Below are positions 1-25,695 of a stretch of 64,000 bases of DNA, one piece after another. A program made the position numbers and the translations under genes. This DNA is from Eledone cirrhosa (Eukaryota). Position 1 is the stretch's first letter; the number at the start of each line of letters is the position of its first letter. The notes below the pieces were generated by a model. It was not told the origin of the DNA, made no database searches, and saw only the letters and a list, made by a program, of their open reading frames with translations. The DNA is taken from positions 212,102,001-212,166,000 of the forward strand of contig OZ024740.1 in assembly GCA_964016885.1 (NCBI GenBank), read 5' to 3'.

Positions 1-2431
1 CAACAAAATCACGATCCGGTCTTTGGCGGACCACGATGGGCGCATGCTACTCGGTCCCGGGCAGATGTGTGTGGCTTTTCAGTGACACTTTGTGGTTCGG
101 GGGCAGCGGCGGGCCGGATCGCGGGATGGACTTTAATGCCTACCTCGACAGACTGCTGTGGCTCTTGGCCACTGAGGCGGAGTGTTGCGAAAAGCCGATA
201 ACAGCTGCTGAAGTACGGGAGGAAATGACTGAGTGCACAATGGGTAAATCACCTGGTTTGGAGGGTCTGCTCTACGAACTTTACGTACAGATGTCAGACT
301 TGTTCGGAGACCTCTTGGCGGACATCTACTGCAACTGGCAACAGAACGGGAGAATTCCCAGCTCTGTGAGCCGAGGAGCGGTGGCACTGCTGAGAAAAGA
401 TCCGAACAAGGGGGATAACATAGATAATTTCAGGCCCATAACTCTGCTAAACACAGAGTTCAAGATTTTGGCTAAGGTGCTAGCAAAGAGGTTGGCGTTT
501 GTCGTCGGTGGTCTGGTGGGAGAGGCGCAGACATGCGGCATTCCAGACAGATCCATCCTCATGCGATACATTGTGGAGAGGGTAGCTAGGGAACCTGGCC
601 CTGGTGGGTCCTTGATCAATTTAGATCAGTCTAAAGCTTTTGATAGGGTTGACCATCACTATCTGGTGGCAGTCCTGAGGGCGGCTGGCTTTGGGCCTGT
701 CTTCAGAAGCTGGATTGATGCCTTGCACAGCGACATCTGCTCTGTGGTGAGAGTGAATGGTCACCTTTTGGAACCATTTAACATCATGTGCTCTGTCCGC
801 CAAGGATGTCTTCTCTCATCCCTGTTGTACGTTTTGACTCTCGAGCCATTACTGCACAAACTGGAGACGTTGAGGAGGCGAACTGGGATGCGTAAGAACC
901 ATGTCAGCATATGCAGTTGACGTGACTGTAGTGGTGTTGAATGCCAAACACATCGAGGCGATCGGCACCTTACTAAGAGAATACGAGGCGGTGACAGGAA
1001 CAATGATCAACCAGGAAAAGTCAGTGGGTCTGCAGCTCAGCACCTGGAGAGGCAGGTCCATGCTGTCCAACAGCATCGTCGGGCGCTGGACAGACAGACC
1101 AATTAAATTGCTAGAGGTCTGGTTCAGTCTGGACCTCCAGACGGACAAAATCTGGGACGAGGTGACGAGCAGGGTGGCCTCTCTCACCCAGAAATGGGCT
1201 GAGAGGAACCTATCCCTGAAAGGTCGAGTGGAGGTGGCGAATGCGTACATCGCGTCATTCATCTACTACCGCCTGACCATCGTGCCTTGTCCTAAGCCTC
1301 GCCTGACTGTGTTGAAGCGTTTGCTCTTTCACTTTTTGTGGAAGGGACGTGCTCTGATGATCAGACATGCGCTCAGGCACGGCATCTCCACCTCTTCCTC
1401 GACGGTGATCAGGTGTGTCGCCCTTTGCTAGACGCGTGTTTCTCCAGCCCATCTCCTTGGCGGAGTTGAAGTCCTGGGTCAAGCGAAGACTGAGAGGAAG
1501 CGTTTGGTGACTGGAATGTCTTCAGGCACTTACAGCCCTCAACCAGCCGAGCAATACGATCGGTGGAAACTCCACCTTGGTGTTCTATAGAGGGTTAGTG
1601 GCGGGAAAGAGCGATGACGTCCTTGGGGAGGCTCTGGGTGTCGACGATGAAAACCAATTAGCCAATCTCTTCGGGAGAACTTTCGGGCTGGGGCCCATCG
1701 ACAACTTCCAGAAATCCCTGGCCTGGCAGTGCTACTGAGGAGCCTTGCCAGTTCGGGATAAAGTCTACAGGCATGGAAGTGCCCTCAGCTGGGCCTATTC
1801 GAGATGCGTGCAGGGCGATGAAACTGTCCTGCACGCTTGTGGCCAGTGTCCAAGCATTACTGACTCGTGAGTTTATGTCAAACACCTGCTGTCACGTGTA
1901 GAATGGATCTGGCTATCAGCTGAGTCCATCATGAGGATTTGCCCAGACGCCTTCCTTTAACCTGGTGGTCATGGTAAAAGAGATCGTATGGTGGACACGT
2001 CTGAAAGAGTTGAAGATGGGTACTTTCCTCTTCGGTGACACCCTCATTAACTTTTTCAGGGTTCACCTGAAAAGGAAAATCAGGGTGGAGAGGGAAGTGC
2101 TGCCTTCCAGCCAGTTTGTTAAAAGGTGGGTGAGATAGGCTAGAATGGCCCATGTGAATGGGCCTACCCTGAGTGTGTGCCTGTAGCATAGTGGGAGGAA
2201 AGCTGGAAGAGGGCACTTGCCCTAGTGGTCAGGGTAACCGTGACGTTCTCCATGAGCGAACCTTGGAAGTCCTGGGGAATTTTTCATTGTTTCCTTTTTT
2301 TGTTACATCCTCTGTTTTTGTTTTTTTAAACACAGAAATGCCCATTTGTACCGTCTTATATTGTACTGTGTTGTCCTTAATGTTATACTTTGTTTTTGTC
2401 AACCCTTGTAGTTAATAAAGAAAGAAAGCAT
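1..2431 (+). mobile_element. L1/Tx1-clade LINE, degenerate ORF2 (RT and C-terminus) plus 3' UTR; runs off the 5' edge of the window
   Basis: ORFs 36-920 and 901-1431 carry RT motifs (KSPGLEG, NFRPITLLN, DQSKAFDRV, VRQGC, degenerate YAVD). Colinear with the near-intact copy at 19640-22180. Ends with AATAAAGAAAGAAAGCATT. Confidence 0.92.
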
Positions 2432-2625
2432 TGGCAGTATCGCTAGAGGGTCGGACACAATGCTTTGACGCATAGAGTTACCGCCCTTGCCATTCTGAGT
2501 TCAAATCCCACCGAGGTTAACTTTGCCTTTCATCCTTACGGGGTCGATAAAATAAAGTACCAGTCACGCACTGGAGTCAATTTCATCGACTTTTCCCTCC
2601 CCCCAAAATTGCTGGCCTTGTGCCT
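2429..2625 (+). mobile_element. tRNA-derived SINE with Meta/MESC-like central domain, lacking its first bases and its tail
   Basis: B-box GAGTTCAAATCC, central GCCTTTCATCCTTACGGGGTCGATAAAAT and 3' GCTGGCCTTGTGCC; same family as 23108-23294. Confidence 0.85.
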
Positions 2626-5600
2626 AGAGAGAGCGCTGTCAGACAACACAGAGAGAGGGAGACTTTGTCAACACATCAAGACAGCGTTCTAGCGAAAATA
2701 AATATAAAAGAAAATATTACGAAGGAAAAGAGGAACAATAGCATTTTTAATGATATTGTTACAGATTTAAAATTACCAAACATTTCTAACACAAACAACA
2801 CCAACAACAACACCATCAATAACAGCAGCTACAACAAAAATAACAACGGTAAGGTCGAGAACGACAATAACAATGACAATAACAGCCACAACAACAATAA
2901 TAGCAAGAACAATATCAACAAAAACAACAATAATAACAACAGCCACAATAACAGTAACAACAACAACAGTATCAACGAAAACAACAACAACAACAACAGT
3001 ACCAATGAAAACATCAACAATGACATCGATACCTGTCACAGCGATCTCAGCACCACCAGTAAGACCAGTAGCGGCAGCAATAGTGGTGCTGCTGAAAAAA
3101 GGACCACTTCTTTTGCAGGTGTCGCCCGAAATATCGAAACAGTGTTAGTCACAGAGGAGGAGGTGGCAGTCACAAGGGCCATGGTGACAAGAAACGCCAA
3201 TAGAGTCTCCCTGAAACCTCCACCCGATTTTTTTCAAGGACCAGCAGCTTCGGACGGTGACTTACCGTACCGTAAGCAAAATGTCACATCGGGTGGAGAG
3301 AGCCATGGAGGCTCATCCAAAAGGGCTTGGGGTGCGTCTGGGCATGAAAACCCACATCACTCGAGGCAGAAAGTACGCCACAGTAGACATACTTTTCGCC
3401 ACCCCAAGAAGCGAAGTCTCACTTTTTGGAAACCCTAAAGAGCGAGGAGATAGTCTTGGTGTCCTCCTACTGCGGGCAGAAAATTGTGAAGGTCAAAGTG
3501 ACCCAGATCCCACCTGACGTGCCCATACCTTGGCTGGCCGCATCTGTCCTTGTTGGAATCGAGGACAGGACGACCATGCTGCAAGTAGAGAAAATAAGGA
3601 GAGAAAACTAGTCAGGTATAGGCATGCAAATGCTTATACAAACTGACCAGGAATGTATCGACGCTATCCCCGATATCATAGACATTGAGGAAGGACTCCA
3701 ACTCCCTATAAGTGTGGAAGGAAGACGGCCAAAATGTTATCTCTGTGGATCAAAGGGTCACCTCAGGGCCTTTGCCTGCAGAAGACAGCAAAGAAGAAGG
3801 CCCCTCTCCTTCCAATACCTGGTCCGCTGCTACTAAGAGCAGGGCAGGCAACAAACGCAGAAGCCCCTTCCACGGTAAGTAGGAGGGCAACGTCCGTGGC
3901 ACCCGTACCAAGGCCACGGACAACTAAAGCAGCAGCATCAGTGGCGGCAACACCAGTAGCTACATTTCCAGTAGCTGCACCAGCAAAAAAATCGCTGGAG
4001 AGGGCTCCACTACCACCACCAACAGCTGTGGAGCACATACCCCTCCCAGACGTCATGGAATCTGATATGGAGTCTGAGGCGGGAGTGAAGTGGCAAACGG
4101 TCTGCCACAAAAAAGAAAAAAAACCCTTAGGTTCACCCTCCAAAAGCGAAGGCACACAAAGAGGGGTAAAGGATGTAAGGAGATTTGCAACAACACCATC
4201 ACCATCACCACCACAAGCACCACCACCAACAACAACCCACACCACTACCAGCATCACCAAAAACACCAACGCAAACACAACAAAACACACACACCAAACA
4301 GCAACAAGAAGAAAACAGCAACAAAATCACCCCTCTCCCCAAAACGTACACAGCCATAAACAGCAAATAAAGAACTCATACAATATATAAAGCAGCACAC
4401 AGACATCACAGGAAAAAACTACTACACCCCTCCAACACCAAGAACTCTCCCGACAAACATAAACATCATTGATGTCAAAATAGAACAGTACAAAACTTTA
4501 AAGCAAAAATTCTCCAACACAGTTGGAGACTTCAGAGGGTCGGTTACCAGGAGGTTATACACTGACATCCTCTTGGAAACACCCATGACCAGCGAAAGGG
4601 ACGGTTCTACTGTCCCTTCACCACACGATCAAGGTAAGTCACCCTTTCTTACTTGCCCCGTTTCTCATCCAACATGGCCGTACTTAGAATAGGCAGTATA
4701 AATGCACGTGGCCTGAGGTCATCTTGGAAGCAGGGACACCTGCTCAACAACTTCAGGTCACTAAACATAGATGTGGTGGCCATCAGCAAGACCAGAATCT
4801 CCAAAGCACGAGCCTTCACACCGATCTTCGGCGGCTACGATGTATACGCATCTCCCAGCCGTCCAGGATCGGGGGGAGGGGTTGCCATCCTTTTTCGGAG
4901 TGGCTTGGATCTCACCACACGGGCCATCTTCCTAGACCCAGAAGGTAAGTCGGTGGTGCTGGACATGACCGGCAGCGAAGGCAATGCTTTCAGGCTAGTA
5001 GCCGTCTACGCCCCAACTGGGGTAGGACGGCCAGATTTCTTCAGACATCTAGATACCTTTCTTGGAATGTCCCGCTCTTTAGTGTTAGTGGGCAACTGGA
5101 ACGGTATCTTGGAAGCACGCTGGGATTGTGTGGGGCTAGTGGATAGGAGAGGAGGGTGCAAGAGCCTCACCAACCCGCTCAGACGTTTTGAACTGTCTGA
5201 CAGGTATCGACTGGATCACCTGAATGTGCCAATGTAGATATAGACAAACCGCATCGGGTTATCCAGATCGTATCTCAATAGGGTATTCTGCAGAGAACTA
5301 GATAAAAATAGTATAAGTTGTCCATAATTTAAAATAGTCGACTACACAGACCACAAATTTGTGATCTGTGAGATCGACATAGACAGACTTCATAGACAAG
5401 GACCTGGTTACTGGAAGCTGAACGCGTCTATCCCGGCGCGCAAAGCCTACAGAGACCGGATTAGCATATTAGGTAAGCGGGCATTGACAGGAGCGGTCGT
5501 CAATAACAGGTGGTGGTGTCGAGCACCAGACACATCCAGATACTCGGCACCGCTCTCAAGGAATACGAAGCGATGACAGGAGCAAAGATAAACCAGGAAA

Positions 5601-6378
5601 AGTCGGTGGGCTTACAGCTCGGCACCTGGAGAGACAAGTCCATGTTGTCCGACAGTGTTGTGGGGCATTGGACGGATAGACCGGTTAAATTGCTCGGGGT
5701 CTGGTTCGGACCAGACCTCCAGATGGAGAAAAACTGGAGCGAGTTGACGAGCAGGGTGGCCTCCCTCACCCAGAAATGGGCCGAGAGGAAGCTGTCCCTG
5801 AAAGGCCGGGCGGAGGTGGCGAATGCGTACATCGCATCCATCGTCCCTTGCTCCGGCCCAACTCTCACCAAAATGGAGCGCCTCCTCTTCCGCTTTTTGT
5901 GGAAGGGACGCCCTCCCATGGTCAGACGATCCATCTGCTGTCAACACCCATTGCATGGAGGACTGGGCATGCCAAGGCTGATGATGCGCAAACATGCGCT
6001 GCGGCTGCTACATCTCTGGTGCTTCCTTGACGGTGAACAGGTGTGGTCGCCGTTTGCCAGGCACGTTTTCCCACAGCTCGTCTCCTTGACGGAGCTGCAG
6101 TCCTGGGTCAGGAAAAGACCGAGGGATAGCGCTTGGAAACTGGAATGTCTCCAGGCACTCACCCCCTTCTGCCAGCTGGGCACCAGTATCGGTGGAACAT
6201 CCACCTCGGCGTTCTATAGAGGACTAGTGGAGGGGAAGAGCGACGATGTTCTCGGAGAGATCCTGGGCGTCGAAGAAGATCAGCTGTTTGCTCTCTTCCG
6301 GAGAACTTTCAGCCCAGGGCCTATGGATAACTTCCAAAAATCCCTGGCCTGGCAGTGCTACCGGGAAGCGTTGCCGGA
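2626..6378 (+). mobile_element. L1/Tx1-clade LINE (second subfamily): frameshifted ORF1, APE endonuclease, RT core deleted, 3' truncated
   Basis: ORF1 pieces with poly-Asn and a zinc knuckle (RRPKCYLCGSKGHLRA). APE motifs SINARGL, VYAPT, GNWNG, TDH. Sequence jumps at ~5515 from the post-APE linker to post-YADD sequence. Confidence 0.9.
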
Positions 6379-7942: not shown

Positions 7943-8414
7943 CTATTCTCAGCTGAGCCTCCAGGCAATGCGCGGACACTGGCGGCTCATATAAAAATAA
8001 TAATTCGGTAGAAAGAACAGCTAGGCGAGGACTGGATTCTATATACTGAAATTCTCACTGCTTCCAGTCAAATGGCCGATTCTAAAGAATCAATCACGTG
8101 ACATAGAGGCTAGTTAGAAGGAATGGGATGGTAAGATGACTGACGCCTACTAACACCCCAAAAAAAATTTTGAAGTGGTTTTGGCAGGTTTGCTCGACAA
8201 ATCAGTGATTTGGAGATAAATATAGATAATTTAATATATCAACTAACATAGGCGCACAGATGCACGTCCATGCCAGCAAATACACAGGTTATGTCATAGT
8301 ACCTAGGTGGTTCAATGCAGGAGGGTGCAGAACAATAATATAAAAGACGTAAAATAAGAAAATATTTTTAAAAAAAATTTTTTTTAAATTTTTTACTAAC
8401 TTACTTAAATTTTC

Positions 8415-8496
8415 ACTCCAACTAATTAGTTTCTGCAATGGGATAAAGACAGTTACATAATCCAACTGTCGAGAATTCATTGCGTCATCAGGGAGT
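8415..8496 (-). ncRNA. Type I hammerhead ribozyme (copy 2)
   Basis: Reverse complement of 8512-8593. Confidence 0.8.
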
Positions 8497-8511
8497 CTAT
8501 TCTCAGTCTAG

Positions 8512-8593
8512 ACTCCCTGATGACGCAATGAATTCTCGACAGTTGGATTATGTAACTGTCTTTATCCCATTGCAGAAACTAATTAGTTGGAGT
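8512..8593 (+). ncRNA. Type I hammerhead ribozyme
   Basis: actcc-CTGATGA-c-gcaatg..gacagtt/aactgtc..cattgc-a-GAAA-ctaattag-TT-ggagt. Stem I actcc/ggagt; palindromic stem III ACTAATTAGT; GUU cleavage triplet; C-A mismatch at the base of stem II. Confidence 0.8.
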
Positions 8594-8783
8594 GAAAATT
8601 TAAGTAAGTAAGTAAAAAATTTTTTAAAAATTTTTTTAAAAAATATTTTCTTATTTTACGTCTTTTATATTATTGTTCTGCACCCTCCTGCATTGAACCA
8701 CCTAGGTACTATGACATAACCTGTGTATTTGCTGGCATGGACGTGCATCTGTGCGCCTATGTTAGTTGATATATTAAATTATC

Positions 8784-8804
<21 letters not shown>

Positions 8805-8814
<10 letters not shown>

Positions 8815-9525
8815 AATAAAAATGAAAATTGAAACAATGAAAAATTCCCAGGTGGGCTCCTTTTTGGCACGGAAGGAGCGTCTTAGTGTTAGTTCCTGTG
8901 TGTTGGTCAGGGAGGGTGTTAGGCAGGATGCTGGGGTAGGTGTTGTGCTACTTTTTTTTAATGTAGTGTGGCAGGCTAAGGCGGTCCTCTAGTTTAGTCA
9001 TGTTTTCAGCGCTTTTGGTGGCTTCTTGAACCTTGTTCCAAGTGATTGATTGGAGTGAGTTGATGGATGACACGGCTGAGGGGAAGGTTCAAGAAGCCAC
9101 CAACAGCGATGAAAACATGACTAAACTGGTGGATATGATAGAAACAGGGATGCCAGAGGACCGCCTTAGCCTGCCGCACTACATTCAAAACAAGTAGCAC
9201 AACACCTACCCCAGCACCCTGCCTAACACCCTCCCTGACCAACACACAGGAACTAACACTAAGACACTCCTCCCGGGCCAAGAAGGAGCCCACCTGGGAA
9301 TTTTTCATTGTTCCAATTTTCATTTTTATTGTTTATATATTTATGTTTCTATGTCTTTTTCTTTTCTTATATAAATAATAAAAATCTTCACACGCACAAA
9401 ACCCGCATTGTACCATCCTGTACCATCCTGTACCATCCTGTACCCTCCTGTACCCTCCTGTACCGTCCTGTGCCGTCTGTAATGTTTTTCTTGATGTCAG
9501 CCCTTATGGCCAATAAAGAGATCAT
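8805..9525. repeat. Inverted duplication of a chimeric Gypsy-pol / Tx1-3'UTR segment
   Basis: 8805-9033 is the reverse complement of 9084-9340. The + arm reads KVQEATNSDENMTKLVDMIETGMPEDRLSLPHYI and later the Tx1 3' UTR, ending AATAAAGAGATCATT. Confidence 0.8.
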
Positions 9526-9631
9526 TGAGGTTAACTTTGCCTTTCATCCTTACGGGGTCGATAAAATAAAGTACCAGTAATGTACTGGGTAATTGCTGGC
9601 CTTGTGCCAAAAGTAGAAACAATTATTATTA
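9526..9631 (+). mobile_element. SINE 3' half with (ATT)n tail
   Basis: GAGGTTAACTTTGCCTTTCATCC...GGCCTTGTGCCAAAAGTAGAAACAATTATTATT. Confidence 0.85.
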
Positions 9632-12110
9632 TAGTTGCATTTATCTTGCTTTATGTTCATACGAGTTATCACCAAGTCACAACCAGTGACCTCAAGAGAC
9701 AACAAGGTCCGCCATGTTCAAGAAAGAACATACATACACACACATGCATCTTTAGGTGTTAAGACTTGTGATGTACTTATATTGACAGAATCTTCCTTAG
9801 TATATGGACAGTTCCCATTAGTACTATCTTTTGTATTTCTCCTATACGCGGGTTTCCTGGGATTTGCGATAAGTAATCATTAGACCCCTTAGGTATCATT
9901 CCTAGAGCGCCTACAACCACTGGTATTGTTTTAGTTCTCAATTTCCACATTTTTCTAATTTCTATCTCCAGATCCTTATACTTGCTCAATTTTTTTAATA
10001 TTTTTATAGATACATTCTTGTCTATTGGAACAGACATATCAATTAACAGGCATACCCTCTTTTTAAAGTCCTTCAGTATTATATCAGGTCTATTTGCATC
10101 TATTTTTCGGTCTGTTTGGATGCTAAAGTTCCACAAGATTGAGATGTGATCTTTTTCAAGTATGGGAGGTGGTTGATGCTCCCACCAATTCTTTAATTCT
10201 TTTGATGGGGCAGGTCAAAATGCTTACACATTATCCAATGTATGTATTGTGCAGCTCTGTCATGCCTGTTTAGGTATTTGGTTGGAGCTATAGGACTGCA
10301 CATTGAAATTATATGATCAATAGTCTCTTGTTGTTTTTTACATACACGGCATAATGGGTTGCATCCATTTTTTATTATGTTGGCTTGGTAATTTTTTGTT
10401 GGCAGACACTGATCTTGTGCTGATATAATCAGTCCTTCAGTCTCTGATTTCAGTCCAGAGGATATCAACATCAAGATTGTTAGCTCTTTCTGGGTATTTT
10501 CCATATAGAGGCTTTTCTTGCCATTTCTTAGCCAGTTTCTGTAGCAGTTCTTTCTTTGCAGTTACTTTTACCTGCTTTGCTTTTTCTGTGTTTTTTATTT
10601 CAGCAGTCATGGAACTTCTGAAATTTGTAGGCCATTACTGTATCTTTGTGCATCTTTTGTAATGGAATATGATCTTTTGATGCTTTCGTGTTTCAAAACG
10701 AGTTTGATCATCCAATCATGTGATTCCCTTAGATAATCCAATTGTTGCAGTTTTCAACGCAATATCTAACTGGATTAACCCACATCCTCCTTCTTTCCTA
10801 GGGAGATATATTCTATCTGTATCTGCCTTAGGGTGATGCATTCTGTGCATGGTTAAGAATTTTCTAATTTTTGTATCGAGCCTACGGATCTCTGTGCTTG
10901 ACCAGTTGATGACATTGTAACTGTAGGTTACTACTGGTATGGCAAGCGTGTTTATGGCATCGATCCTATTCCTTGCATTCAATTCCGTTCTTAAGATTGC
11001 TCTTACTCTGTGGTAACATTCCTTTCTTATCCTTTCCCTCATTGTCGAGTGCGTTGCTTCAGTTCCTCTATGATAATATTTAGCTTTTTCCTCCTAGTTT
11101 TGTACTTTATTTCCAGTCTATTTTTAGTGTCTATGTTTTTTAGTGTCCCATTCAGTAGGGACTCAAGCTTTCCAATGTAATTTCTCATTTCCCTGATTTG
11201 ACCATTCAGTCGTTTCTTCCACCAAGGTTCTGATCTTTCTTGTTTGTTGTTTCCTTTCGCTTTTATGCCAAGTAATTTCCTCACCGCATTTGCTGTTGCT
11301 TTGAGGATATTGTTGCACTGGTGAAGGCTCCTCGCATCAAGGTATGGGATGACTTTGTTTACCTTAGCTGTTGTTTCTTTTAACTTTTTCCTGTCTACAA
11401 ATCTTAGGTTCATAGGTTTCCCACTATCATTGTTCATTTCATCTACCACTAAGTTTAGGATATCAACCAAATCTTGTCCTAGCCCGTCAGCATTCATTTC
11501 CTCAATGGCCGTATCTTTGTTCCAGGTATTATTTATTTCAGCTTTCAGATCATTGTCTGCTTCGGATGGTTCCTCCGTTCTCTCAACCTCTTCACCTTCA
11601 TTTCCCACTGGCTCGTTTGCCTGGCATACTCCACTCTCCATTTCCAACCTAATCTCTCTGCTCAGTTCCTCCAGTTCCAGCTCGTTTATCCACCCATTAG
11701 TTCTTATTACCTGAGCCTGCCTGGCCAATTTTTGTTCATCTAATTTATATAGACCAATCTCGTTCCAGATGTTATGCATCCGTTTCCTATAGCCTTTCTC
11801 CTTGGGGTTACTCTTCAGGTAACATTGCATAACAGTTTTATTCAATTCTTTCGTCCAGTTGGTTCTGGTCCCTTTCCTTCTTCTTCTTCCTCCAACACCA
11901 GCAGTATTTGGATGACAGCCAGGTCCATGCTGCTGGGCCAGGGAGCACCTGCTGGGTGAGAGTCTGTCACATGACATTCCAGTCTACACTTCACCATTAT
12001 TCGAACTGTTTAGGTTCGACATTTAAGCACTCATATCGAGGATTGGTGAATGTATGGTTACATAACTACCGGTGATTTCATCACCCCCGGTGATTTTAGC
12101 GTGGCACCAT
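9632..12110 (-). mobile_element. R4/Dong-like RLE non-LTR retrotransposon, RT domain internally deleted
   Basis: N-terminal ORF 11039-11977; thumb region 10716-11042; CCHC (CRVCKKQQETIDHIISMC) followed by RHD; RLE motifs RPDI, IDMSVP, KKLSKYKDL. The 3' end abuts (TAA)n. The 5' boundary is approximate. Confidence 0.85.
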
Positions 12111-12660
12111 CATGCTGTAGACGAACATAAACAAACAAACAAACCAAACAAACAAACAGACAAAAACCTAAAAAAACAAAAACAAACACAAGTTTCATTG
12201 TAATGTTTGAATGTCTGACTTAGTTTCTCTTTCTCTTTCCTTTCCTGTCCGTTTGTTTTTTCCTTTGCGTTTTTAGTTTTACAAGGCCAGTAACATTGGT
12301 TACTAGTGTTGTTGTTGCTGCTGCTAAGGGAAGTAGGGGTTGTTGTGTTCAAAACTTTTGAAACCTGTGCCTGTTGTTGCGTTTGCTTCTGTCTGTGTTC
12401 TGTTCTATAATTTTTCGACTATAATTTTTTTCCTTTCATCCCTACGGGGCCGACACCACATTAAATATTAAATTAAATATTAAATATTGGAGCCTTATGC
12501 CGTAATGTGATGCGTTGCCACTTCCTGAGAGTTAAGACTGATATCTTACGTTCCATTTGTAATAAGAATTATTCTATCACAATTGTTTTAAATATGTAAA
12601 AAATCAAAAACTTACGGGAGCGATTCCATAATACCCTATCCAACATGTGTGTGTCTTCCC

Positions 12661-12699
<39 letters not shown>

Positions 12700-12701
<2 letters not shown>

Positions 12702-14142
12702 GTGGGGCATTGGACGGACGGACCGGTTAAATTGCTCGGGGTCTGGTTCAGACCAGACCTCCAGATGGAGAAAAACTGGAACGAGGTGACGAGCAGGGTG
12801 GCCTCCGTCACCCAGAAATGGGCCGAGAGGAAGCTGTCCCTGAAAGGCCGGGCGGAGGTGGCGAATGCGTACATCGCATCCGTCATCTGCTACCGCCTCA
12901 CCGTCGTCCCTTGCTCCGGCCCAACTCTCACCAAAATGGAGCGCCTTCTCTTCCGCCTTTTGTGGAAGGGACGCGCTCCCATGGTCAGACGATCCATCTG
13001 CTGTCAACACCCATTGCATGGATGACTGGGCATGCCATGGCTGATGATGCGCAAACATGCGCTGAGACTGTGACATCTCTGGTGCTTCCTTGATGGTGAA
13101 CAGGTGTGGTCGCCGTTTTCAAGGCACGTTTTCCCACAGTTCGTCTCCTTGACGGAGCTGCAGTCCTGGGTCAGGAAAAGACCGAGGGATAGCGCTTGGA
13201 AACTGGAATGTCTCCAGGCGCTCACTGCTCTCTGCCAGCTGGGCACCAGTATCGGTGGAACATCCACCTCGGCGTTCTATAGAGGACTAGTGGAGGGGAA
13301 GAGCGACGACGTTCTCGGAGAGATCCTGGGCGTCGAAGAAGATCAGCTGTTTGCTCTCTTCCGGAGAACTTTCAGCCCAGGGCCTATGGATAACTTCCAG
13401 GCACGGAAGTGCCGTCAGCCGAGCCTGTCCGAGATATGCACAGAGTGACGAAACCGTCGTGCACGCACTCGTTCAGTGCCCAAGCATTGCTGACTTGTGG
13501 AGCTATGTCGAACAGTTGCTGTCGCGTGTAGGACTGATCCGGTTGTCGACTGAGTCCATTGTGCAGATGGTCTCGCCGTCTTCCTTCGAGGAGGAAGGGC
13601 AGGCAGTTTTCATCTGACTGGTGGCTATGGCGAAAGAGATTGTGTGGTGGATAAGGGTAAAAGGGTTAAAGACAGACACTTTCCTCTTCGGCGAATCCCT
13701 AATTAACTTTTTCAAGTTTCACTTGAAGAGGAAAATCGGGGTGGAGAGGCAAGTGCTGCTTTCTAGCAAGTTTGTTGAAAGGTGGGTGAATGTAGCGAGA
13801 ATGGTCCGAGTAAACAAGACCACTCTGAATATACGTCTGTAGTTTGAGAGATGGAAAAATTGAGAGAGGGCACTTGCCCTGGTGGTCAGGGTGGCCGTGG
13901 TGTTTTGTGTGGTTTTCGCCATGAGTAACCCTCGGAGGTTTCCCCCTATTGGGGAATTTTTCATTGTTTCAATTTTCATTTTTATTGTTTATATATATGT
14001 TTCTGTCTTTTTTTTCTTTTCTTATATAAATAATAAAAATATTTACACGCACAAAACCCACATTGTACCGTCCTGTACCGTCCTGTGCTGTCTGTAATGT
14101 TTTTCTTGATGTCAGCCCTTGTGTTCAATAAAGAAATCATTA
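12700..14142 (+). mobile_element. 5'-truncated Tx1-clade LINE flanked by (ATT)n on both sides
   Basis: Near-identical to 5658-6335 and continues through the CCHC region and 3' UTR. (ATT)n at 12661-12701 and 14140-14160. Confidence 0.9.
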
Positions 14143-14160
14143 TTATTATTATTATTATTA

Positions 14161-16253
14161 CAGTTGCATTTATCTTGCTTTATGTTCATACGAGTTATCA
14201 CCAAGTCACAACCAGTGAACTCAAGAGACAACAAGGTCCGCCATGTTCAAGGAAGAACATACATACTCACACATGCATCTTTAGTGTTTAGACTTGTGAT
14301 GTACTTATATTGACAGAATCTTCCTTAGTATATGGGCAGTTCCCATTAGTACTATCTTTTGTATTTCTCCTATACGCGGGTTTCCTGGGATCTGCGATAA
14401 GTAATCATTAGACCCCTTAGGTATCATTCCCAGAGCGCCTACAACCACTGGTATTGTTTTAGTTCTCAATTTCCACATTTTTCCAATTTCTATCTCCAGA
14501 AAGTTTTGTCAACATCAGGATTGTTAGCTCGCTCTGGGTATTTTCCATACAGAGGCTTTTCTTGCCATTTCTTAGCCAGTTTCTGTAGCAGTTCTTTCTT
14601 TGCAGTTACTTTTACCTGCTTTGCTTTTTCTGTGTTTTCCATTTCAGCAGTAAATGGGACTTTTGAAATTTGTAGTCCATTACTGTATCTTTGTGCATCT
14701 TTTGTAATGGAATATGATCTTTTGATGCTTTCGTGTTTCAAAACGAGTTTGATCATCCAATCATGTGATTCCCTTAGATATGTAGATAATCCAATTGTTG
14801 CAGTTTTCAACGCAATGTCTAACTGGATTAACCTACGTCCTCCTTCTTTCCTAGGGAGATATATTCTATCTATATCTGCCTTAGGGTGATGCATTCTGTG
14901 CATGGTTAAGAATTTTCTAATTTTTGTATCGAGCCTACGGATCTCTGTGCTTGACCAGTTGATGACATTGTAACTGTAGGTTACTACTGGTATGGCAAGC
15001 GTGTTTATGGCATCGATCCTATTCCTTGCATTCAATTCCGTTCTTAAGATTGCTCTTACTCTGCGGTCACATTCCTTCCTTATCCTTTCCCTCATTGTCG
15101 AGTGCTTGATTCCGTCTCCTTCATAAACACCTAGATATTTGTAAGTTTTTTCTTGATCAAGTTCTCTTATCACGTTCCCCCGATCAAGATTAATGTCTGA
15201 ACTCTTCAGCAGCTTTCCTCTGGTGAACGTTGCTTTGGCGCATTTATCTAGTCCAAACTCCATTTTAATGTCATCACTGAACTGCTCCACAGTGGATAAT
15301 TGCCCTTGCAATTGTTCATCATTTTTTGTAAATAGTTTCAGGTCATCCATATAGAACAGGTGATTAATGGTTTTGTCATAGACTTTATATCCATGTTTTG
15401 TTTCATTGAGCATTTTACTTAATGGTATAAGTGCGATGCAGAATAAAAGCGGTGATAAAGAGTCACCCTGAAAAATTCCACAATTAATATTAACTTCTCC
15501 AGCTTCCAGTGATTTTGTTTCACTATTCAAAAGGAGTGTCGTTTTCCATGTCTTCATACTGAATGACAAAAACCTCCTGACAACGGGGGATATTTTGAAA
15601 ATCTCTAAACATTTTTCAATCCAACTGTGTGGCAAACTATCGAATGCTTTTTTATAATCTATCCAAGCAATCGATAGATTTTTGTGTCTATTATGACAAT
15701 CTTCCAGTATCATTTTGTTAACCAGAAGCTGATCCTTACAGCCATATGAGCCTCGTTTACACCCTTTCTGCTCAATGGGAAATAGGTCATTTGTTATCAG
15801 GTGGTCATATGTGTATTCAGTTAGGACTGATGTTAAAATTTTATACATTGTGGTCAAGCAAGTTATCGGTCTGTAATTTTTGGGATTGTTTGTCTCATCA
15901 TTCTTCGGAAGCAGGAATGTAATGCCGTTAACTAGCCATGATGGTATCTTTTCTGGCTCCTTAACTATTTCATTGTAAAGTTGGGCTAACAGCTCATGAG
16001 ACTCTGTGAAGGCATTTATCCAAAAGTTTTGTATTTTGTCTTTTCATTTGCTGGTTTTTCTTAGAGCCAAGCGCAACTGTTCAACTGTTATATTTTCCCA
16101 TGTTTGTTCCTCAAGGTGAGCTGTATCTTTCATTTGTCTGTCTATCCATGGGGCATGTATGTTATGAACTTTTTCTTCGGCCCAGATCTTTTCCCAGAAT
16201 TCTTGCACTTCCTCCTTGGGTGGTATTGATTTAGCAGTTATTGTTGACTTACC
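14161..16253 (-). mobile_element. R4/Dong-like element, 5'-truncated, RT present, CCHC/RLE deleted
   Basis: ORF 14490-15857 has WIDYKKAFDS, GIFQGDSLSP and FYMDD. 3' UTR matches 9632-9970. (TAA)n on both flanks. Confidence 0.9.
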
Positions 16254-16278
16254 AATTATTATTATTATTATTATTATT

Positions 16279-19200
16279 GGCGACCTACGTAGTAAATCGT
16301 ATTATCGTGAGCTCCGCAAAGGTTTGTTATTTCCGTTTGTTAAAAATTGCCATTTATGGAAAATTTTATTGTTAACTGTTTATAAGCACACATACATTGT
16401 TTTCCGAAAAGGACACCCAAAAAGATTGGGGCCTTGTGCCCAAAATTTTAACTTTTATTATTATCCAAAAATTTCTTTGAAAAAAAATGGCTAATTCCCC
16501 TCTGCACGAAGCAGCTGAAAGCCTTCCTCACAAAATAACACCTCACACCGACACCACCATTGTAAATGTTACTACGTTTGCCAACACAAAAAAAAAATAT
16601 AAGCAGTAGCAATATTTTAAATTTGTCTCAGGCAGACATTCATTTCCCGCCATTACCAATGACTGCAGGTGTTAAAGCCTCCACCACCACCACCACCGCG
16701 ACAACCACCACCCCCACCACCACCGCGACAACAGAAACAAAAGAAGAAAAAAATAAATTAACTTGTGATGTCGAAATGAAATTAAGCAAGATGGACTCTT
16801 CCGCAGCAAAGACGACTGACGTCACCACCACCACAACTGAAACTAAAATTAAGATTAACACAAATAACGATAGCAACAACAACAACAATGACATTATAAA
16901 ACCGACCCTCAGTTTCGCCATCGTAGCAAAACAATTCGAAGCGTTCACGGTAACTCAAGAGGATTTAGAAAATGCCAAACAAATGGTAAAGAAAGATGAG
17001 TACAGGGTCAGCCTCACCCCCCCCCCACCTAATAAAATGGAGCATCGGCGCCTATGCACCGTGTCGTATAAAACAATAAATGTAAAATCGCGCTGAGTGG
17101 AACGGGCATCCGAGTCCCAAATCCAAAAAGCTTTGGGACATGTGTGGGCAAGAAAAACCCACATCAGACGTGGGTAAAAGTATGGAACCGTGGATGTGTT
17201 CTTTGAAACACCAGAGGAGGCTAGAGAACACTCCATGGCCCCATTAAAAAGTGACGACTTCACACTCGTCCCAAGCTATTGTGGCCAGAGACTCGTAAAG
17301 ATCAGGGTGACCCACGTTCCACCGGCCATCGAAATTCCCTGGCTAATAGCGGCTGTCCTCGCCGGCATCGAAGCCAACACGAAAATAATAGCAATAGCAA
17401 AAGAAAAGCAGGAAAACTGGTCCGGATCTGGGATGGAGCTCCTAATCCAAGCGGACCAAAAAAGCATTGAGGAGATCCCAGAGGTAATAGACCTCACTGA
17501 CGGCAGCCACCTCACGGTAATTGTCGAGGGCAGAAGACCTAGGTGTGTCGTTTGTGGTGAAGGAACCCACCTAAGGGCTTTCTGCCCTCAGGCTAAAAGG
17601 TTGAGGCCACCTCTCCTACCCACCCCAGTGACACAACCATCAACACCACCAGTAGCAGAGATGGCAGCAACAACAGTAGCAGCAACAACAGAAGCAACTA
17701 TAACAGCAACAACCCCAGCAACAGTAGCAAAACCAACACCACTACCACCACCAGCAAAACCAACACCACCACCACCCAATGCTTCAGAACTAGCACCAGC
17801 GCCTACACCATCCACCACGCCACAACCAAAACTAACGGCTGTGGAGGATTTTCCACTCCCCGGCCTATCACAACTGGAGACAGATTGTGACGACAAGGAG
17901 TGGGAAACGATATCCGGAAAAAAAAAAGAAACCAAAAAAGAAAAAATTCTCTTCCTTCCCCCTCCAAAAACAAAATACAGAGGGAAACAAATAAATTAAG
18001 AAACAAAAAAGTTAGGACAGATATGCCACCATCCACACCAGCATCACCAACCCCATCAACCCAAACACCAACACCATCACCATCATTAACCCCAACACCA
18101 CCATCACCTACACCACAAAAGTCACCAAAATGCGAAACAGAAACAAACCCACAACAAACGCAAACAAAACAAAACAACCAAAACGATACACACTACACAG
18201 CATTAAATTTGAACAACAAGCAATTATTACACTACATCCAACACAACACCAGCATCACAGAAAAAGACTACACAACAACCCCAAAATTCACACCACCTCC
18301 ACACATACAAATCACTCGCATCACACAGAAAACGTACATGACACTAACAAAAAATTCCCCAAAGACATCGGAGACTTCCGACAAGCACTCTCCAGGAGGA
18401 TTTATAAGGACATCCTTCCTGAGGAGGCCACAAGCAGTGAAAAGGATGGAAAAACCGTCCTTCCCCTACGAGAAGTAAGGTAAGTGGTCTTTCCCATCTT
18501 TTCCACTCCTTTTCAACATGACCTCACTCAGAATAGGCAGCATAAATGCGCGTGGCTTGGGGTCGTCATGGGAGCAGGGCCACCTGCTCAACGACCTCAG
18601 GTCACTAAACATAGATGTAGTGGCCATCAGCGAGACCAGAATCTCCGAAGCACAGGCTTTCGCACCGAACTTCGGCGGCTACGATGTGTACGCATCTCCC
18701 AGCCGTCCGGGATCGGGGGGAGGAGTTGCTGTGCTTTTTCGGAGAGGTTTGGATCTTGCCATACGGGCCATCTTCCTGGACCCAGAAGGTAAGTTGGTGG
18801 TGATGGACGTGACCAGCGGAGACGGGCAAGCTTTCAGGTTAGTGGCCGTCTATGCCCCGACAGGAGCAGGGTGGCCTGATTTCTTCCGGCGTCTGGAGAC
18901 CTTTCTTGGAACGTCCCGCTCTTTAGTGTTAGTGGGCGACTGGAACGGGATCTTAGATGCACGCTGGGATTGTGTGGGATTAGTGGATAGGGAAGGAGGG
19001 TGCAAGAGTCTCACCAACCCGCTCAGACGTTTTGAACTGTCTGACAGGTACCGAATGGATTTCCCGAATGTACCAATGTGGACTTGGACAAATCGCATAG
19101 GGTCATCCAGATCATAACTAGATAGAGTATTTTGTAGGGAAATAGATAGGTCCAGCATAGGCTGTCCACAATTCAAGATAGTCAGCTACACGGACCACAA

Positions 19201-22180
19201 ATTCCTGATCTGTGTGCTTGACTTAGATAGGCTTCATAGACAAGGACCCGGCTACTGGAAGCTAAACGCGTCCTTACCAGCGCGCAAGGCCTACAGAGAC
19301 CGGATTAGCGAACTAGTTAAGCGGGCGTTGACGGGGGCCATCGTCAACAACAAGTGGTGGTTTGCTCTGAAAAGAGCAATTAGAATACACTCCATTAGGT
19401 TTAGTAAGACTTTAGCAATAGAGAAAAATAGAGCAGAGGGAGAATTAGTTAGAAAATTAGATGAGGCGCTTAGCAAAGGCATCGCGACCGACGTACTTGC
19501 GGCGAAATTGGCCCTTAACCAATTCTTCAATGCAGAGCACGAAGGCTGTGTTGTCAGAGCTAGGGTGCGTGCTCTCAGGCACAAGGGGACAAAAGCCGTT
19601 CAATGGGCCCGAGTGGTGGAGGCGCGTCGTGGCAACAAAGCCACGATCCGGTCTTTGGTGGACCACGACGGGCGCATGCTACTCGATCCCGGGCAAATGT
19701 GTGAAGCTTTTCAGCGACACTTCACTCAACTGTTCGGGGGCAGTGGCGGGCCGGATCGAGGGATGGACTTTAGTGTCTACCTCGACGGACTGCCGCGGCT
19801 TTCGGCCACTGAGGCGGAGTATTGCGAAAAGCCGATAACAACCGCTGAAGTACGGGATGCAATGACTAGTTGCACAAGGGGTAAATCGCCTGGTTTGGAT
19901 GGTCTGCCCTATGAACTTTACGTACAAATGCCAAACTTGTTCGGAGGCCTCTTGGCGGACGTCTACTGCAACTGGCAACAGAACGGGAGAATTCCCAGCT
20001 CTGTGAGCCGAGGAGCGGTGGCGCTGCTGAGAAAGGATCCGAACAAGGGGGATAACATAGATAATTTTAGGCCCATAACTCTGCTAAAGACAGAGTTCAA
20101 GATTTTGGCCAAGGTGCTAGCAAAGAGGTTGGCGCTTGTCGTTGGCGGTCTGGTGGGAGAGGCACAGACATGCGCCATTCCCGACAGATCCATCCACGAC
20201 AACCTCCACCTCATGCGATACATCGTAGAGAGGGTAGCTAGGGAACCTGGCACGGGTGGGTCTTTGATCAATTTAGATCAGTCGAAAGCCTTCGATAGGG
20301 TCGACCATCGTTACCTAGCGGCAGTCCTGAGGGCGGCTGGCTTTGGGCCCGTCTTCAGAGGCTGGATCGCTGCCATGCACAGCGACATCTGCTCTGTAGT
20401 GAGAGTGAACGGTCACCTTTCGGAACCGTTCAACATCATGCGCTCGGTCCGCCAAGGATGTCCCCTCTCGTCCCTATTGTACGTATTGACTCTCGAGCCA
20501 TTACTGCACAAACTGGAGACGTTGAGGGGGGTCCCGCGCGAACTAGGATGCGGGAGATCCGTGTCAGCATATGCCGACGATGTCACCATAGTGGTGTCGA
20601 ACGCCAAACACATCGAGGCGATCGGCACTACACTAAAGGAATACGAAGCGGTGACAGGAGCAATGATCAACCAGGAAAAGTCAGTGGGCCTGCAGCTCGG
20701 CACCTGGAGAGGCAGGTCCATGCCGTCCAACAGCGTCGTCGGGCGCTGGACGGACGGACCGGTTAAATTGCTAGGGGTCTGGTTCGGTCCAGACCTCCAG
20801 ACGGACAAAAACTGGGACGAGGTGACGAGCAGGGTGGCTTCTCTCACCCAGAAATGGGCCGAGAGGAAGCTATCCCTGAAAGGTCGAGCGGAGGTGGCGA
20901 ATGCGTACATCGCATCCGTCATCTACTACCGCCTGACCGTCGTACCTTGTCCTAAGCCCCGCCTGACTGCGCTGGAGCGTTTGCTCTTTCGCTTCTTGTG
21001 GAAAGGATGCGCTCCGATGGTCAGGCGGTCCATCTGCTGTCAACACCCGCTACGTGGAGGGCTGGGCATGCCATGGCTGATGATGCGCAGACACGCGCTC
21101 AGGCTACGACATCTCCACCTCTTCCTCGACGGTGATCAGGTGTGGTCGCCGTTTGCTAGATGCGTTTTTCCCCAGCTCGTCTCCTTGACGGAGCTGCAGT
21201 CCTGGGTCAAGCGAAGACCGAGAGGGAGCGCTTGGAGACTGGAATGTCTTCAGGCGCTCACAGCCCTCGACCAATCGGGCAATGTGATCGGTGGAAACTC
21301 CACCTTGGCATTCTATAGGGGATTAGTGGAGGGGAAGAGCGACGACGTACTTGGAGAAACTCTCGGCGTCGACGAAAATCAACTAGCCAATCTCTTCGGA
21401 AGGACTTTCGGGCCGGGGCCTATGGACAACTTCCAGAAATCCCTGGCCTGGCAGTGCTACCGAGGAGCTTTGCCAGTTCGGGATAAACTCTACAGGCATG
21501 GAGGTGCCGTCAGTCGGGCATGTCCGAGATGCGCGCAGGGCGACGAAACCGTCCTGCACGCACTCGTCCAGTGTCCGAGCATTGCTGACTTGTGGGTTTA
21601 TGTCGAACACCTGCTGTCACGTGTAGGACGGATCCAGCTATCAGCTGAGTCCATCGTGAGGATTGCCCCGCCCCCTTCCTTTAGCCGGGAAGGGCAGGCA
21701 GTTTTTATCTGTCTGGTGGCCATGGCGAAAGAGATAGTATGGTGGACACGTTTGAAAGGGCTGAAGACGAGCACTTACCTCTTCGGTGATGCCCTGATTA
21801 ACTTTTTCAAATTTCATTTGAAAAGGAAAATCAGGGTAGAGAGGGAAGTGCTCTCTTCCCAGCATTTTGTTGAAAGATGGGTGAGAGAAGCAAGTATGGC
21901 TCGAATGAATGGGCCTTCTCTGAGTATGTGTCTGTAAATTAAAGGTGGAAAACTGGGAGAGGGCACTTGCCCTGGTGGTCAGGGCCACTGTGGTCTTTTA
22001 ATGGGCTTTCTCCACAAATGTCCCTCGGAAGTCTCCCCCCTATTGGGGAATTTTTCTTTGTTATTTTATTTCATCCTCTGTTTTTTTTACACGCAGAAAT
22101 GCCCATTTGTACCGTCCTGTATTGTCCTGTACTGTCCTTAATGTCTACTTTATGTAAACCCTTGTGGTTAATAAAGAAAA

Positions 22181-22182
<2 letters not shown>
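16279..22182 (+). mobile_element. Near full-length L1/Tx1-clade LINE
   Basis: 5' UTR, disrupted ORF1 (16566-18483) with CVVCGEGTHLRAFC knuckle, ORF2, and a 3' UTR ending AATAAAGAAAACATT(ATT)n. (ATT)n also lies 5' at 16255-16278. Confidence 0.95.
18518..21937 (+). pseudogene. Tx1 ORF2 (APE-RT-CCHC), single premature stop
   Basis: ORFs 18518-19117 and 19214-21937 are in the same frame; the only interruption is TAA at 19115-19117 (SRS*LDRV). Motifs GDWNG, TDH, QGCPLS, YADD and CPRCAQGDETVLHALVQC are present. Confidence 0.93.
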
Positions 22183-22217
<35 letters not shown>

Positions 22218-22516
22218 TCAGGTAAGAATCAAGCATAAAGATTTGTTAAAAAGCGAAAGACAATTTAGTGAAAATGGAACCTAAACTGACATTTGGAATT
22301 GATGACAACCTAAACCTAGAGGTAATTCTTTGTTGTATTTGCATTTGACAAACACAGACATCTGTACAGAGCCATTGAGAGAAATTTTGTAAGGTGGAAT
22401 AAGAGAGATTTTTGTAAAGTGGAATAAGAATGCTTTAGAGCCCTGGGAAGGTGGGGGTCTGCTCACATTCAAGGGTGTTCAGAGGTGTTATTTTTCATGG
22501 AAAGGAGGGTGTCATA

Positions 22517-22602: not shown

Positions 22603-22959
22603 CACTGACTGAATTCCACTGTTACAGGTCTAACATCTTTGTGTATATTTTGGTTAGTTAATCCCATTCCATTTTAAAACATTCAGAACTTATCACAATA
22701 GCAGGAACAGGAACAGCAGAAAGAGTAGCTGTTGTTATTGTTGTTTCCCTCAAGGCATTGTGTAGACCTATAATCAAAATCATTCCAGCCTTGACCATCC
22801 TGTATTATTGGAGCCATCTAAGATTCCATTGTTTAACTATTTCTTTTACCATATTTCTAACAAAAGATACTGCTTATGATTTACAATTAATTTTGAAAAT
22901 AATCAAGAATTTTGAAGTATTTAGTAATATATCTAACTTGCTTATTATTAAGCCTGTGT

Positions 22960-23026
22960 ACCCCCAATGTCCCCATCTATTGTCTTGTCCGCTATATGTA
23001 GGCTCTTGTGGCCAATAAAGAAATTG
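22960..23026 (+). mobile_element. Extremely 5'-truncated Tx1-like 3' end with 15-bp TSD
   Basis: CTCTTGTGGCCAATAAAGAAA resembles the Tx1 termini. TTATTAAGCCTGTGT is duplicated at 22945-22959 and 23027-23041. Confidence 0.65.
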
Positions 23027-23107
23027 TTATTAAGCCTGTGTGATACAGATGGAGTGACAGAATTGTTTGAGTGTAGGAAAAAGTTTTTGCATTATTTAGT
23101 TATGACT

Positions 23108-23294
23108 AAGGGCGGTGGATTGGCAGTACCGGTAGAGGGTCGGACGCCATGCTTTGACGCATAGTTACGGCCCTTGCCATTCTGAGTTCAAATCCCACCC
23201 AGGTTAACTTTGCCTTTCATCCTTACGGGGTCGATAAAATAAAGTACCAGTAATGTACTGGGTAATTGCTGGTCTTGTGCCAAAAGTAGAAACA
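23108..23294 (+). mobile_element. Young tRNA-SINE inserted into an older copy of the family (~23050-23468)
   Basis: A box TGGCAGTACCGG and B box GAGTTCAAATCC. TSD ATTATTTAGTTATGACT at 23091-23107 and 23295-23311. Confidence 0.9.
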
Positions 23295-23489
23295 ATTATT
23301 TAGTTATGACTCTCTATATTCTGAGTTCAAATCCAGTGAAGGTCAACTTTGCTTTTCATCCTTTGGGATTCAATAAAATAAAATACCAGTTAAGTACTGA
23401 GTCGATATAATCAAATTTCCTCCTCCCCTAAATTTCTAACCTTGTACCATTGTTAGAAAGAATTATTAAGCTGGTATTTGGAACATAAC

Positions 23490-24729: not shown

Positions 24730-25464
24730 TAGATAAAAAAAACTTTTGATATACAAAGGAGAAGAAACAGCATTGTAAGGGGTGAGAATTTGCTTCAACT
24801 AGAAATAGAAACTGTATTGTGGGCTAAATGCTGCTGCTGCCGCTGCTGCTGCTACCATTGCTGTTGTTGCTGCTGCTGCTTCTTTTCTTCTTCTTCGTCT
24901 TCTTCTTCTTCTTCTTCGTTTTCTTCTCATCATTTTAGTGATATCAGTTGTGCATTCTTGCAGTCGTTTCCAGGAGTTAATCAAATTTTGTAGGGTTGGT
25001 CCCTCACTGTATTTAGCACATTCCTCCTCCATTTGTTGGTCAATATCCTGATATTTTTGTTCATTGGAGGTAGCTCTTAATTTTAAGAGTTCTATTTCCA
25101 TATTCATTTTGTTGAGTGACATTTGTTCGCGTAGTTTCCTTTGTTGTTCAGGCTCATTAGTTATGGGTTTTATTTGGAATTTATGGGGTAAGATTAGTGG
25201 TGTGGAGTTGATCCAGTTTTCATAGATTCCAGCTTTGTTCATATTTTTCACCATATTCCAAAGAGTGAATTTTCTTGTTTTCAATTGTTTTTTTTTTTCA
25301 AAAGTGTCAGATTTTGTTTTTAATTAAGGTGTTCGCTCTAACATAGCTGTATATATCAATAGGATAGATTAAGCATGGCACAGTGTAAGATAAGACTGAC
25401 ATTTTTAATTTACAGGCACAATTATTTTTTTCCAGCTGAGTGGCTTTGAGTAACATGAAATAAT

Positions 25465-25653
25465 TGTTTCTACTTTTGGCACAAGGCCAGCTATTATTCC
25501 AGTGCATTACTGGTACTTTATTTTATCGACCCCGTAAGGATGAAAGGCAAAGTTAACCTCGGCGGGATTTGAACTCAGATCATAAAGGGAGGTAACTCTA
25601 TGCTTCAAAGCATGGCGTCCGACCCTTACCGATACTGCCAATCCACCGCCCTT
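25465..25653 (-). mobile_element. tRNA-SINE with 16-bp TSD
   Basis: AGTAACATGAAATAAT at 25449-25464 and 25654-25669; the paralogous site near 37385 is empty. Confidence 0.92.
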
Positions 25654-25695
25654 AGTAACATGAAATAATGTGTCTTGATTGTACCAGCTTAATGA

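Follow-up and report, generated by a model that had tools for sequence, protein, structure and literature searches.

How copies of two unrelated families of long interspersed nuclear elements (LINEs) come to lie end to end in a single ATT microsatellite is the question raised by a stretch of 64,000 nucleotides from Eledone cirrhosa (assembly GCA_964016885.1, contig OZ024740.1, positions 212,102,001 to 212,166,000, forward strand), referred to below as the window. At positions 9632-22217 of the window, Tx1-type and Dong/R4-type copies were found to be stacked against the ATT tail of a short interspersed nuclear element (SINE), and this stack is a real example of nested, repeat-directed LINE insertion. 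Both Tx1-type copies of the stack, which represent two subfamilies 79-83% identical to each other, have their 5' junctions in ATT tracts. This finding supports a preference of the Tx1-type family for ATT, because a tail cannot account for a 5' junction. A relaxed, tail-primed preference for sites with at least two ATT units is probably the explanation, and it fits the data better than strict microsatellite specificity.

Results

Organization of the stack

The SINE and the components of the stack, in order along the window, are as follows.

9527..9631, plus strand: 3' half of a SINE whose CUUGU hairpin is followed by a 12-nt spacer and a tail of (ATT)3, 96-99% identical to 23201-23300, 25459-25560 and 33954-34054
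9632..12660, minus strand: Dong/R4 copy 1, with its presumed 5' end at 12660, a 5' untranslated region (UTR), an N-terminal region, a deleted reverse transcriptase (RT), a CCHC finger, a restriction-like endonuclease (RLE) motif and a 3' UTR
12661..12701, no strand: (TTA)13.7 tract that separates Dong copy 1, at its presumed 5' end, from the truncated Tx1-type copy, from Tandem Repeats Finder and the junction sequence
12702..14138, plus strand: 5'-truncated Tx1-type copy (end of open reading frame (ORF) 2 and 3' UTR), the 5' junction of which overlaps the tract by 2 nt
14139..14160, no strand: (ATT)7.3 tract common to the tails of this Tx1-type copy and of Dong copy 2, from Tandem Repeats Finder and the junction sequence
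14161..16254, minus strand: Dong/R4 copy 2, 5'-truncated, with the RT present and an internal deletion of about 500 bp near 14500
16255..16278, no strand: (ATT)8 tract that separates the 5' ends of Dong copy 2 and of the long Tx1-type copy
16279..22181, plus strand: long Tx1-type LINE, with ORF1 at about 16566-18478, ORF2 at 18518-21937 and a 3' UTR with a polyadenylation hexamer
22157..22169, plus strand: predicted 3' hairpin with a 4-bp stem and a CUUGU loop, common to the Tx1-type ends and the SINE
22182..22217, no strand: (ATT)12 tract that closes the stack, from Tandem Repeats Finder; the flank past the tract has low depth

The order of the stack is thus Dong/R4 (minus), Tx1-type (plus), Dong/R4 (minus) and Tx1-type (plus), and its members are parted by ATT tracts alone, of 7-14 units each. 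All four tracts were pure (100% matches in Tandem Repeats Finder), and the junction sequences held no spacer DNA at any of them, which bears out the claim of an earlier reading made from the letters alone (the sequence-only reading) that the elements are stacked without unique DNA between them. The same reading described two unrelated LINE families on opposite strands. In agreement with it, the Tx1-type pieces with ORF sequence all lay on the plus strand, both Dong copies lay on the minus strand, and the RTs of the two families formed fully separate groups in a tree. It had also stated that another Dong copy ends in the tail of a SINE, and the 3' tail of Dong copy 1 does meet the SINE tail at 9622-9631. 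Its order of three LINEs stood, but its count probably does not, since this Dong copy appears to extend from 9632 to about 12660 and so to reach the first tract. It is therefore likely that four LINE copies, and not three as first noted, occupy 12.5 kb in one SINE tail, and the SINE at 9527-9631 is the likely original landing site of the stack.

The proposal that each insertion regenerates the target is consistent with the amount of repeat at the locus, in that the five tracts of the stack sum to about 44 units versus about 2 units in the other aligned SINE tails of the window. In 23301-57000 there was no ATT/AAT run of at least five units, and in 23301-64000 such runs took up 25 bases, whereas the stack holds four, a contrast that is not independent because the stack was chosen for having tracts. 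Runs of at least three units made up 0.27% of 23301-57000. Within the window, no Tx1 or Dong match was found beyond 23100.

A local tandem duplication was ruled out as the origin of the stack. The two Tx1-type copies belong to different subfamilies and therefore did not arise from each other by local duplication; moreover, the two Dong copies carry different deletions.

The Tx1-type copies

The long copy at 16279-22181, which the sequence-only reading called full-length, contains both ORF1 and ORF2 but is not intact, with stops in both frames and a frameshift in ORF1. ORF2 (one stop, in the endonuclease) encodes an apurinic-type endonuclease (APE; PF03372), an RT (PF00078) and a C-terminal zinc finger (zf-RVT, PF13966), which is the domain set of the L1/Tx1 group. 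In an alignment of its endonuclease with structures of the human L1 enzyme, the catalytic positions were conserved, and the named protein closest to ORF2, from Argonauta hians, matched at 69% across 71% of the query. In the RT tree, a three-row group including the Argonauta protein stood apart from the Dong-like RTs; this tree was made by a quick method from 43 rows picked from matches, with relatives unnamed or generically named and without a named Tx1, R4 or Dong. ORF1 (two stops and a frameshift) carries a CX2CX4HX4C knuckle in its translation, and by this feature it agrees with the Type I ORF1 (RNA recognition motif and CCHC knuckle, not Transposase_22), as defined in the part of PMC5203782 used here. 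No Pfam match was found for ORF1. Its Atlas matches, which serve as a lead only, were 0.90-0.92 to CCHC clusters and 0.88 to ZCCHC3-type RNA-binding clusters.

The truncated copy at 12702-14138 encodes a protein 73-82% identical to ORF2 of the long copy. At the DNA level it showed 83% and 79% identity to the long copy and 93% to 5658-6336, and it thus represents another subfamily. The following Tx1-type or related pieces lie outside the stack.

1..2432, plus strand: Tx1-type copy, 88% and 80% identical to the long copy; it ends in one ATT and continues directly into a SINE without the first 14 nt or so
2625..6375, plus strand: long chimeric Tx1-type copy of other subfamilies, with the 3' end lost and the 5' position approximate
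9296..9526, plus strand: Tx1-type 3' UTR piece that ends in one ATT and is joined to the 5'-truncated SINE
22945..23041, plus strand: 67-bp LINE 3' end (copy at 22960-23026) in a (TTA)3 site, with a 15-bp duplication at 22945-22959 and 23027-23041

The 67-bp LINE end carries the same terminal motif as the Tx1-type ends. The 5' end of the copy near 2625 is joined to a SINE 3' end without spacer and tail, and begins about 12 nt before the position of the SINE tail. Folding of five Tx1-type ends paired the terminal CAUU with a UAAUG farther upstream in four of them (z from -2.0 to +0.9, with one end reaching -2, so that each fold is weak by itself); because of this pairing, the first ATT is likely to be an element-encoded part of the predicted Tx1 3' RNA stem.

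The region 1-6375 forms a second plus-strand stack, consisting of a Tx1-type copy, a truncated SINE and a long Tx1-type copy fused near 5510 to a 3' part of a third subfamily. Downstream of it, a Gypsy-like integrase fragment (6455-7723, minus strand) is interrupted by a Tx1-type 3' UTR piece, twice in mirror image. The foldback region 7644-9526 contains palindromes at 8216-8792 (97%) and 8793-9352 (80%), and may be either a true rearrangement or an assembly artefact.

The Dong/R4-type copies

Dong copy 2 retains an RT (PF00078, E=1e-29), is 58-64% identical to single-ORF proteins with RT and RLE, and is collinear with relatives of about 1,200 aa (P0123, aa 416-1004 and 1174-1237). It is without the 5' part and about 500 bp that would hold the zinc finger and the RLE core. 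Dong copy 1, which is 95-97% identical to copy 2, covered aa 796-1237 of P0123 in tblastn, and its translation contains a CCHC finger and an RPD..D..K motif that we take to be the RLE endonuclease. The two copies combined display the domain set of Dong/R4 elements, namely a single ORF with RT, CCHC finger and PD-(D/E)xK endonuclease and no APE. Among the 120 matches listed, there was no named Dong or R4 reference.

In copy 1, about 670 bp extend from the ORF to 12660, right against the first tract, and position 12660 would be its true 5' end. With the 5' end of copy 1 so placed, both copies show (AAT)n at the 3' side and a tract at the 5' side, as is expected of insertion into (TAA)n. The predicted fold at the 5' end of copy 1 gave z = -1.3. 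In the putative 5' UTR of copy 1, 12432-12456 contains a match of about 23 nt, on the opposite strand, to the central conserved segment of the SINE, and the stretch beside it pairs, in the predicted fold, with the first 17 nt or so of the presumed Dong 5' end.

The SINE and the common 3' end

The SINE and the Tx1-type ends are alike in a 4-bp stem, a CUUGU-type loop, an A-rich spacer and ATT, and the spacer is 12 nt long in 5/5 SINE ends and 3/5 Tx1-type ends. RNAalifold, repeated on nine ends of the window without the three rows that the search pattern had selected, predicted this hairpin and no other, and three of its four pairs had changes on both sides. Thus, the SINE and the Tx1-type family have a 3' terminal structure, the predicted hairpin, in common. 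A stricter hairpin pattern, made after inspection of the data, matched 8 sites versus 0 in 100 shuffles. No tRNA gene was detected in the SINE head by a tRNA scan.

Eight SINE pieces were aligned, and both flanks were available for three insertion events. All three target duplications were 15-17 bp long and began with ATTATT; for one of these sites, the state before insertion is seen in an empty paralogue near 37381. The young SINE copies at 23109-23480, 25458-25670 and 33950-34359 lie in or beside older repeats at ATTATT sites; one young insertion is a tandem pair under a single duplication.

Discussion

Target preference of the Tx1-type family

With a relaxed preference, the stack would have grown by successive target-primed insertions, each of which likely left extra ATT target. 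The Tx1 endonuclease would nick the AAT strand with relaxed preference, and the Tx1 RNA, ending in the hairpin and CAUU(AUU)n, would pair with the freed 3' end, so that sites with at least about two ATT units would be selected. A second nick about 15-17 nt downstream would then create the target duplication. Dong would act as the mirror image, with a (UAA)n tail on the other strand, and tail, duplication and slippage together would lengthen the tract at every insertion. Read on the strand of each element, the ends are ATT in Tx1-type copies and SINEs but AAT in Dong. Provided that the RNA tail base-pairs with the nicked strand, as in standard target-primed reverse transcription, the two families would face opposite ways in a common tract. 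As for the order of insertion, divergence suggests that the SINE tail likely came first, followed by Dong copy 1 and the short Tx1-type copy, then the long Tx1-type copy, and finally Dong copy 2. Because Dong copy 2 was about 1% off its best-matching public-run contigs and the long Tx1-type copy 1-4% off, the data weakly suggest that Dong copy 2 was the last to arrive and that the tract at the 5' end of the long Tx1-type copy was not its product.

The sequence-only reading had proposed an ATT-targeting Tx1 family. The 5' junctions of both stack copies in tracts are in line with this proposal, but strict targeting finds no support in the single-ATT ends and the ATT-free 5' junctions outside the stack. 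Moreover, ATT at a 5' junction cannot tell an ATT-specific endonuclease from tail-primed site choice, because both routes place ATT on the 5' side through target duplication.

Several observations weigh against a relaxed, tail-primed preference or temper it. The Tx1 3' ends near 2430 and 9526 show a single ATT followed by SINE sequence, and no ATT run is present at the 5' junction of the copy that begins near 2625 or at that of the piece reaching 9526, which starts in the Gypsy-like fragment. Hence 2 of the 4 readable Tx1 5' junctions in the window lie in ATT tracts, and both come from the stack pair behind the finding; by the criterion in an excerpt of PMC4494074, a Tx1 family counts as target-specific when a single target type accounts for over 20% of its flanks. 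All the junction evidence comes from one 64-kb window, and the nick positions are deduced from places where tail and target overlap. The 67-bp LINE end, the one Tx1-like copy for which a duplication could be read, gave no BLAST match to Tx1 3' UTRs and is thus not tied to a Tx1 ORF. None of the 102 loci from a pattern scan (77 metagenome, 25 viral) matched Tx1, Dong or the SINE by blastn, and protein-based scans of metagenome, viral and prokaryote collections returned no further copies. The divergences come from few contigs of public runs with differing organism labels. A point in favour of a relaxed preference is the hairpin loop of the endonuclease, which is as long as its counterpart in human L1, a promiscuous element, and shorter by two residues than that of the site-specific Tx1L; this loop is tied to target choice, yet specificity could not be swapped modularly (excerpt of PMC1950540), so that loop length is a weak predictor. 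On the Dong side, the silkmoth element carries a hepatitis delta virus (HDV)-like ribozyme after the TAA repeats (excerpt of PMC3774820), and none was detected at the presumed Dong 5' end of this decayed copy by Rfam or by a loose descriptor run without a positive control. As regards the link between the SINE and the Tx1-type family, which is a separate matter, the resemblance of their 3' ends is modest: global alignment of the SINE end with the five Tx1-type ends scored 13-19, in the top 0.3-1.5% or so of window 26-mers, and a loose hairpin pattern matched 10 sites, all of them element ends, against a mean of 4 and a maximum of 10 in shuffles (n=100), which is a weak excess. Furthermore, the same hairpin and hexamer end an unrelated LINE in the metagenome contigs L061 and L068.

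It is unlikely, albeit conceivable, that the Tx1-type family is instead a strict microsatellite specialist like Kibi and Koshi, with an endonuclease that reads (AAT)n and with single-ATT junctions that arose secondarily by template switches or rearrangements. Tx1-clade microsatellite specialists are known (excerpt of PMC4494074), and both stack copies are flanked by long tracts on each side. Both single-ATT ends continue into 5'-truncated SINEs, a shape that would suit template-switch chimeras better than primary insertion sites, and the copy near 2625 begins short of the SINE tail position. Against strictness, 2-3 units were enough at the sites of the 67-bp copy and of the SINEs, and the endonuclease loop is of L1 length. 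Public runs also cover the Tx1 family to very great depth, in keeping with a dispersed family, although depth does not give a copy number.

It is distinctly improbable that the Tx1-type family has no preference for ATT, the repeat being a templated tail and the stack being the product of Dong and SINE targeting of tails, together with chance Tx1 hits or deletions between tails. This explanation would draw on the likely element-encoded first ATT, on the two ATT-free Tx1 5' junctions outside the stack, on the status of Dong as a known TAA specialist (excerpt of PMC3812793) and on the other LINEs of the window, which have (ATG)n tails and are unstacked. A tail, however, accounts for 3' junctions alone; in the stack, each of the two Tx1 5' ends adjoins a tract of a kind that makes up at most 0.06% of the background, and a deletion between tails cannot bring a 5' end to a tract.

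The arrangement of the stack rests on the assembly, and rows at repeat sites were left out of the public read and contig listing. The interval 12000-12750 was deeply covered in public reads and contigs, and on the right flank a public contig matched 22225-22904 with 0 differences at depth 23. Although no read or contig in that listing bridges the junctions and the arms of the foldback at 7.8-8.8 kb are 97-99% identical, an assembly artefact, in which reads of repeat copies were joined through common ATT tracts, can be set aside with little hesitation, given that every piece has its own truncation and deletion, that the tracts are just 22-41 bp long and that the right flank agrees with the public contig. 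A pile of loose ends at 19521 lies at an AATT site and was set aside as a likely restriction-library end.

Relationship between the Tx1-type family and the SINE

The common 3' end and the SINE target duplications that begin with ATTATT raise the possibility that Tx1 may be the partner LINE of the abundant SINE. The fusion of two Tx1 ends to truncated SINEs would be in keeping with template switching in one RT complex. This partnership is weakened by the unrelated LINE of L061 and L068, because it bears the same 3' motif. P0293, a relative of that LINE, is about 27% identical to the Tx1-type RTs and is without zf-RVT; the position of the motif after a non-Tx1 LINE C-terminus hints that this motif is common across LINE clades. 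Another octopus LINE with a CUUGU tail could thus be the true SINE partner, and Tx1 and the SINE possibly came to have a common 3' hairpin through a tail swap from another LINE clade. Metagenome repeat 3' ends with the CUUGU hairpin and the hexamer were also seen at L013, L019, L027, L045, L064, L071 and L076. We put forward, only tentatively, the wider proposal that the ATT-tailed Tx1 drives the dominant octopus SINE and, together with Dong, turns two-unit SINE tails into growing ATT pads, multi-kb stacks and much of the AAT load.

Comparison with known systems

Microsatellite targeting by Tx1 elements, TAA targeting by Dong and convergence of APE and RLE elements on one target are already in print. 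Kibi (TC), Koshi (TTC) and crocodilian Tx1 (TTCC, TTTC) target microsatellites according to excerpts of PMC4494074 and PMC3812793. Like the family studied here, they are two-ORF APE-type L1/Tx1 elements sitting in microsatellites; compared by description only, they differ in target, which for them is (TC)n, (TTC)n, (TTCC)n or (TTTC)n and here is ATT, and the preference here is seemingly relaxed. In crocodilians, Tx1 mobilises SINEU (PMC4494074, same excerpt). Dong targets TAA in silkmoth, mosquito and snail (excerpt of PMC3812793). The copies in the window resemble it in their single ORF with RT, CCHC finger and RLE and in (TAA)n at both ends, and differ in that both are deleted and that no HDV-like ribozyme was detected at the presumed 5' end. 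The APE element Keno of the Tx1 clade and the RLE element Utopia converge on one site in U2 snRNA (excerpt of PMC4640811). Here too, unrelated endonuclease classes use one target; U2, however, is a gene site at a fixed place and is consumed by insertion, in contrast to an ATT tract, which would be regenerated and in which the families lie on opposite strands.

In SINE-LINE pairs, the SINE likewise ends in a LINE-like hairpin, a spacer and a repeat tail, but the mollusc partners named in the available parts of PMC4824008, PMC4758252 and PMC3747384 are CR1 or L2, and these parts do not name a Tx1 partner for an octopus SINE. Dong-R4 is abundant in octopus genomes (excerpts of PMC13282606, PMC8967140 and PMC10294476), and in Octopus vulgaris both Dong-R4 and L1-Tx1 are abundant, with recently active families (PMC13282606). 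The excerpts of these three papers and of PMC9115989 contain no target preference for octopus Tx1. Further background on the elements and ORF1 types is given in parts of PMC8869645, PMC9004415 and PMC5203782. No ATT/AAT-targeting Tx1 was found in the literature searched, a search that stopped short of Repbase Reports, the 2004 survey of Kojima and Fujiwara and the target list of PMC4494074. Both the ATT target and the possible SINE partnership look undescribed in that literature.

If the pattern is general, ATT would join the list of Tx1 targets and a very abundant SINE would gain a named partner. Likewise, a self-feeding loop of SINE tails, microsatellites and two LINE clades would explain part of the uneven transposon landscape of octopuses; transposon hotspots in octopus genomes are reported in PMC13282606, the searched passages of which hold no target analysis. 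The locus also offers a natural pair, an APE and a restriction-like enzyme that would act on opposite strands of a single repeat, in which the nuclease can be set against RNA-tail priming in target choice.

Other repeats of the window

Other LINE-clade copies at 28380-46500, with RT and PHD matches, end in (ATG)n tails and are unstacked. A 53-55 bp satellite occupies 25739-28419 with about 48 copies in the main array, and related shorter arrays lie beside LINE tails at 29620-29838 and 36454-36820. A Mariner-type transposase fragment (HTH_48, Transposase_1) was found at 53599-54297. At the right flank of the stack, 22215-22226 reads TTTCAG and then GTAAGA, an acceptor-like sequence with a donor-like one immediately after it, a juxtaposition that resembles recursive splice sites but could be due to chance.

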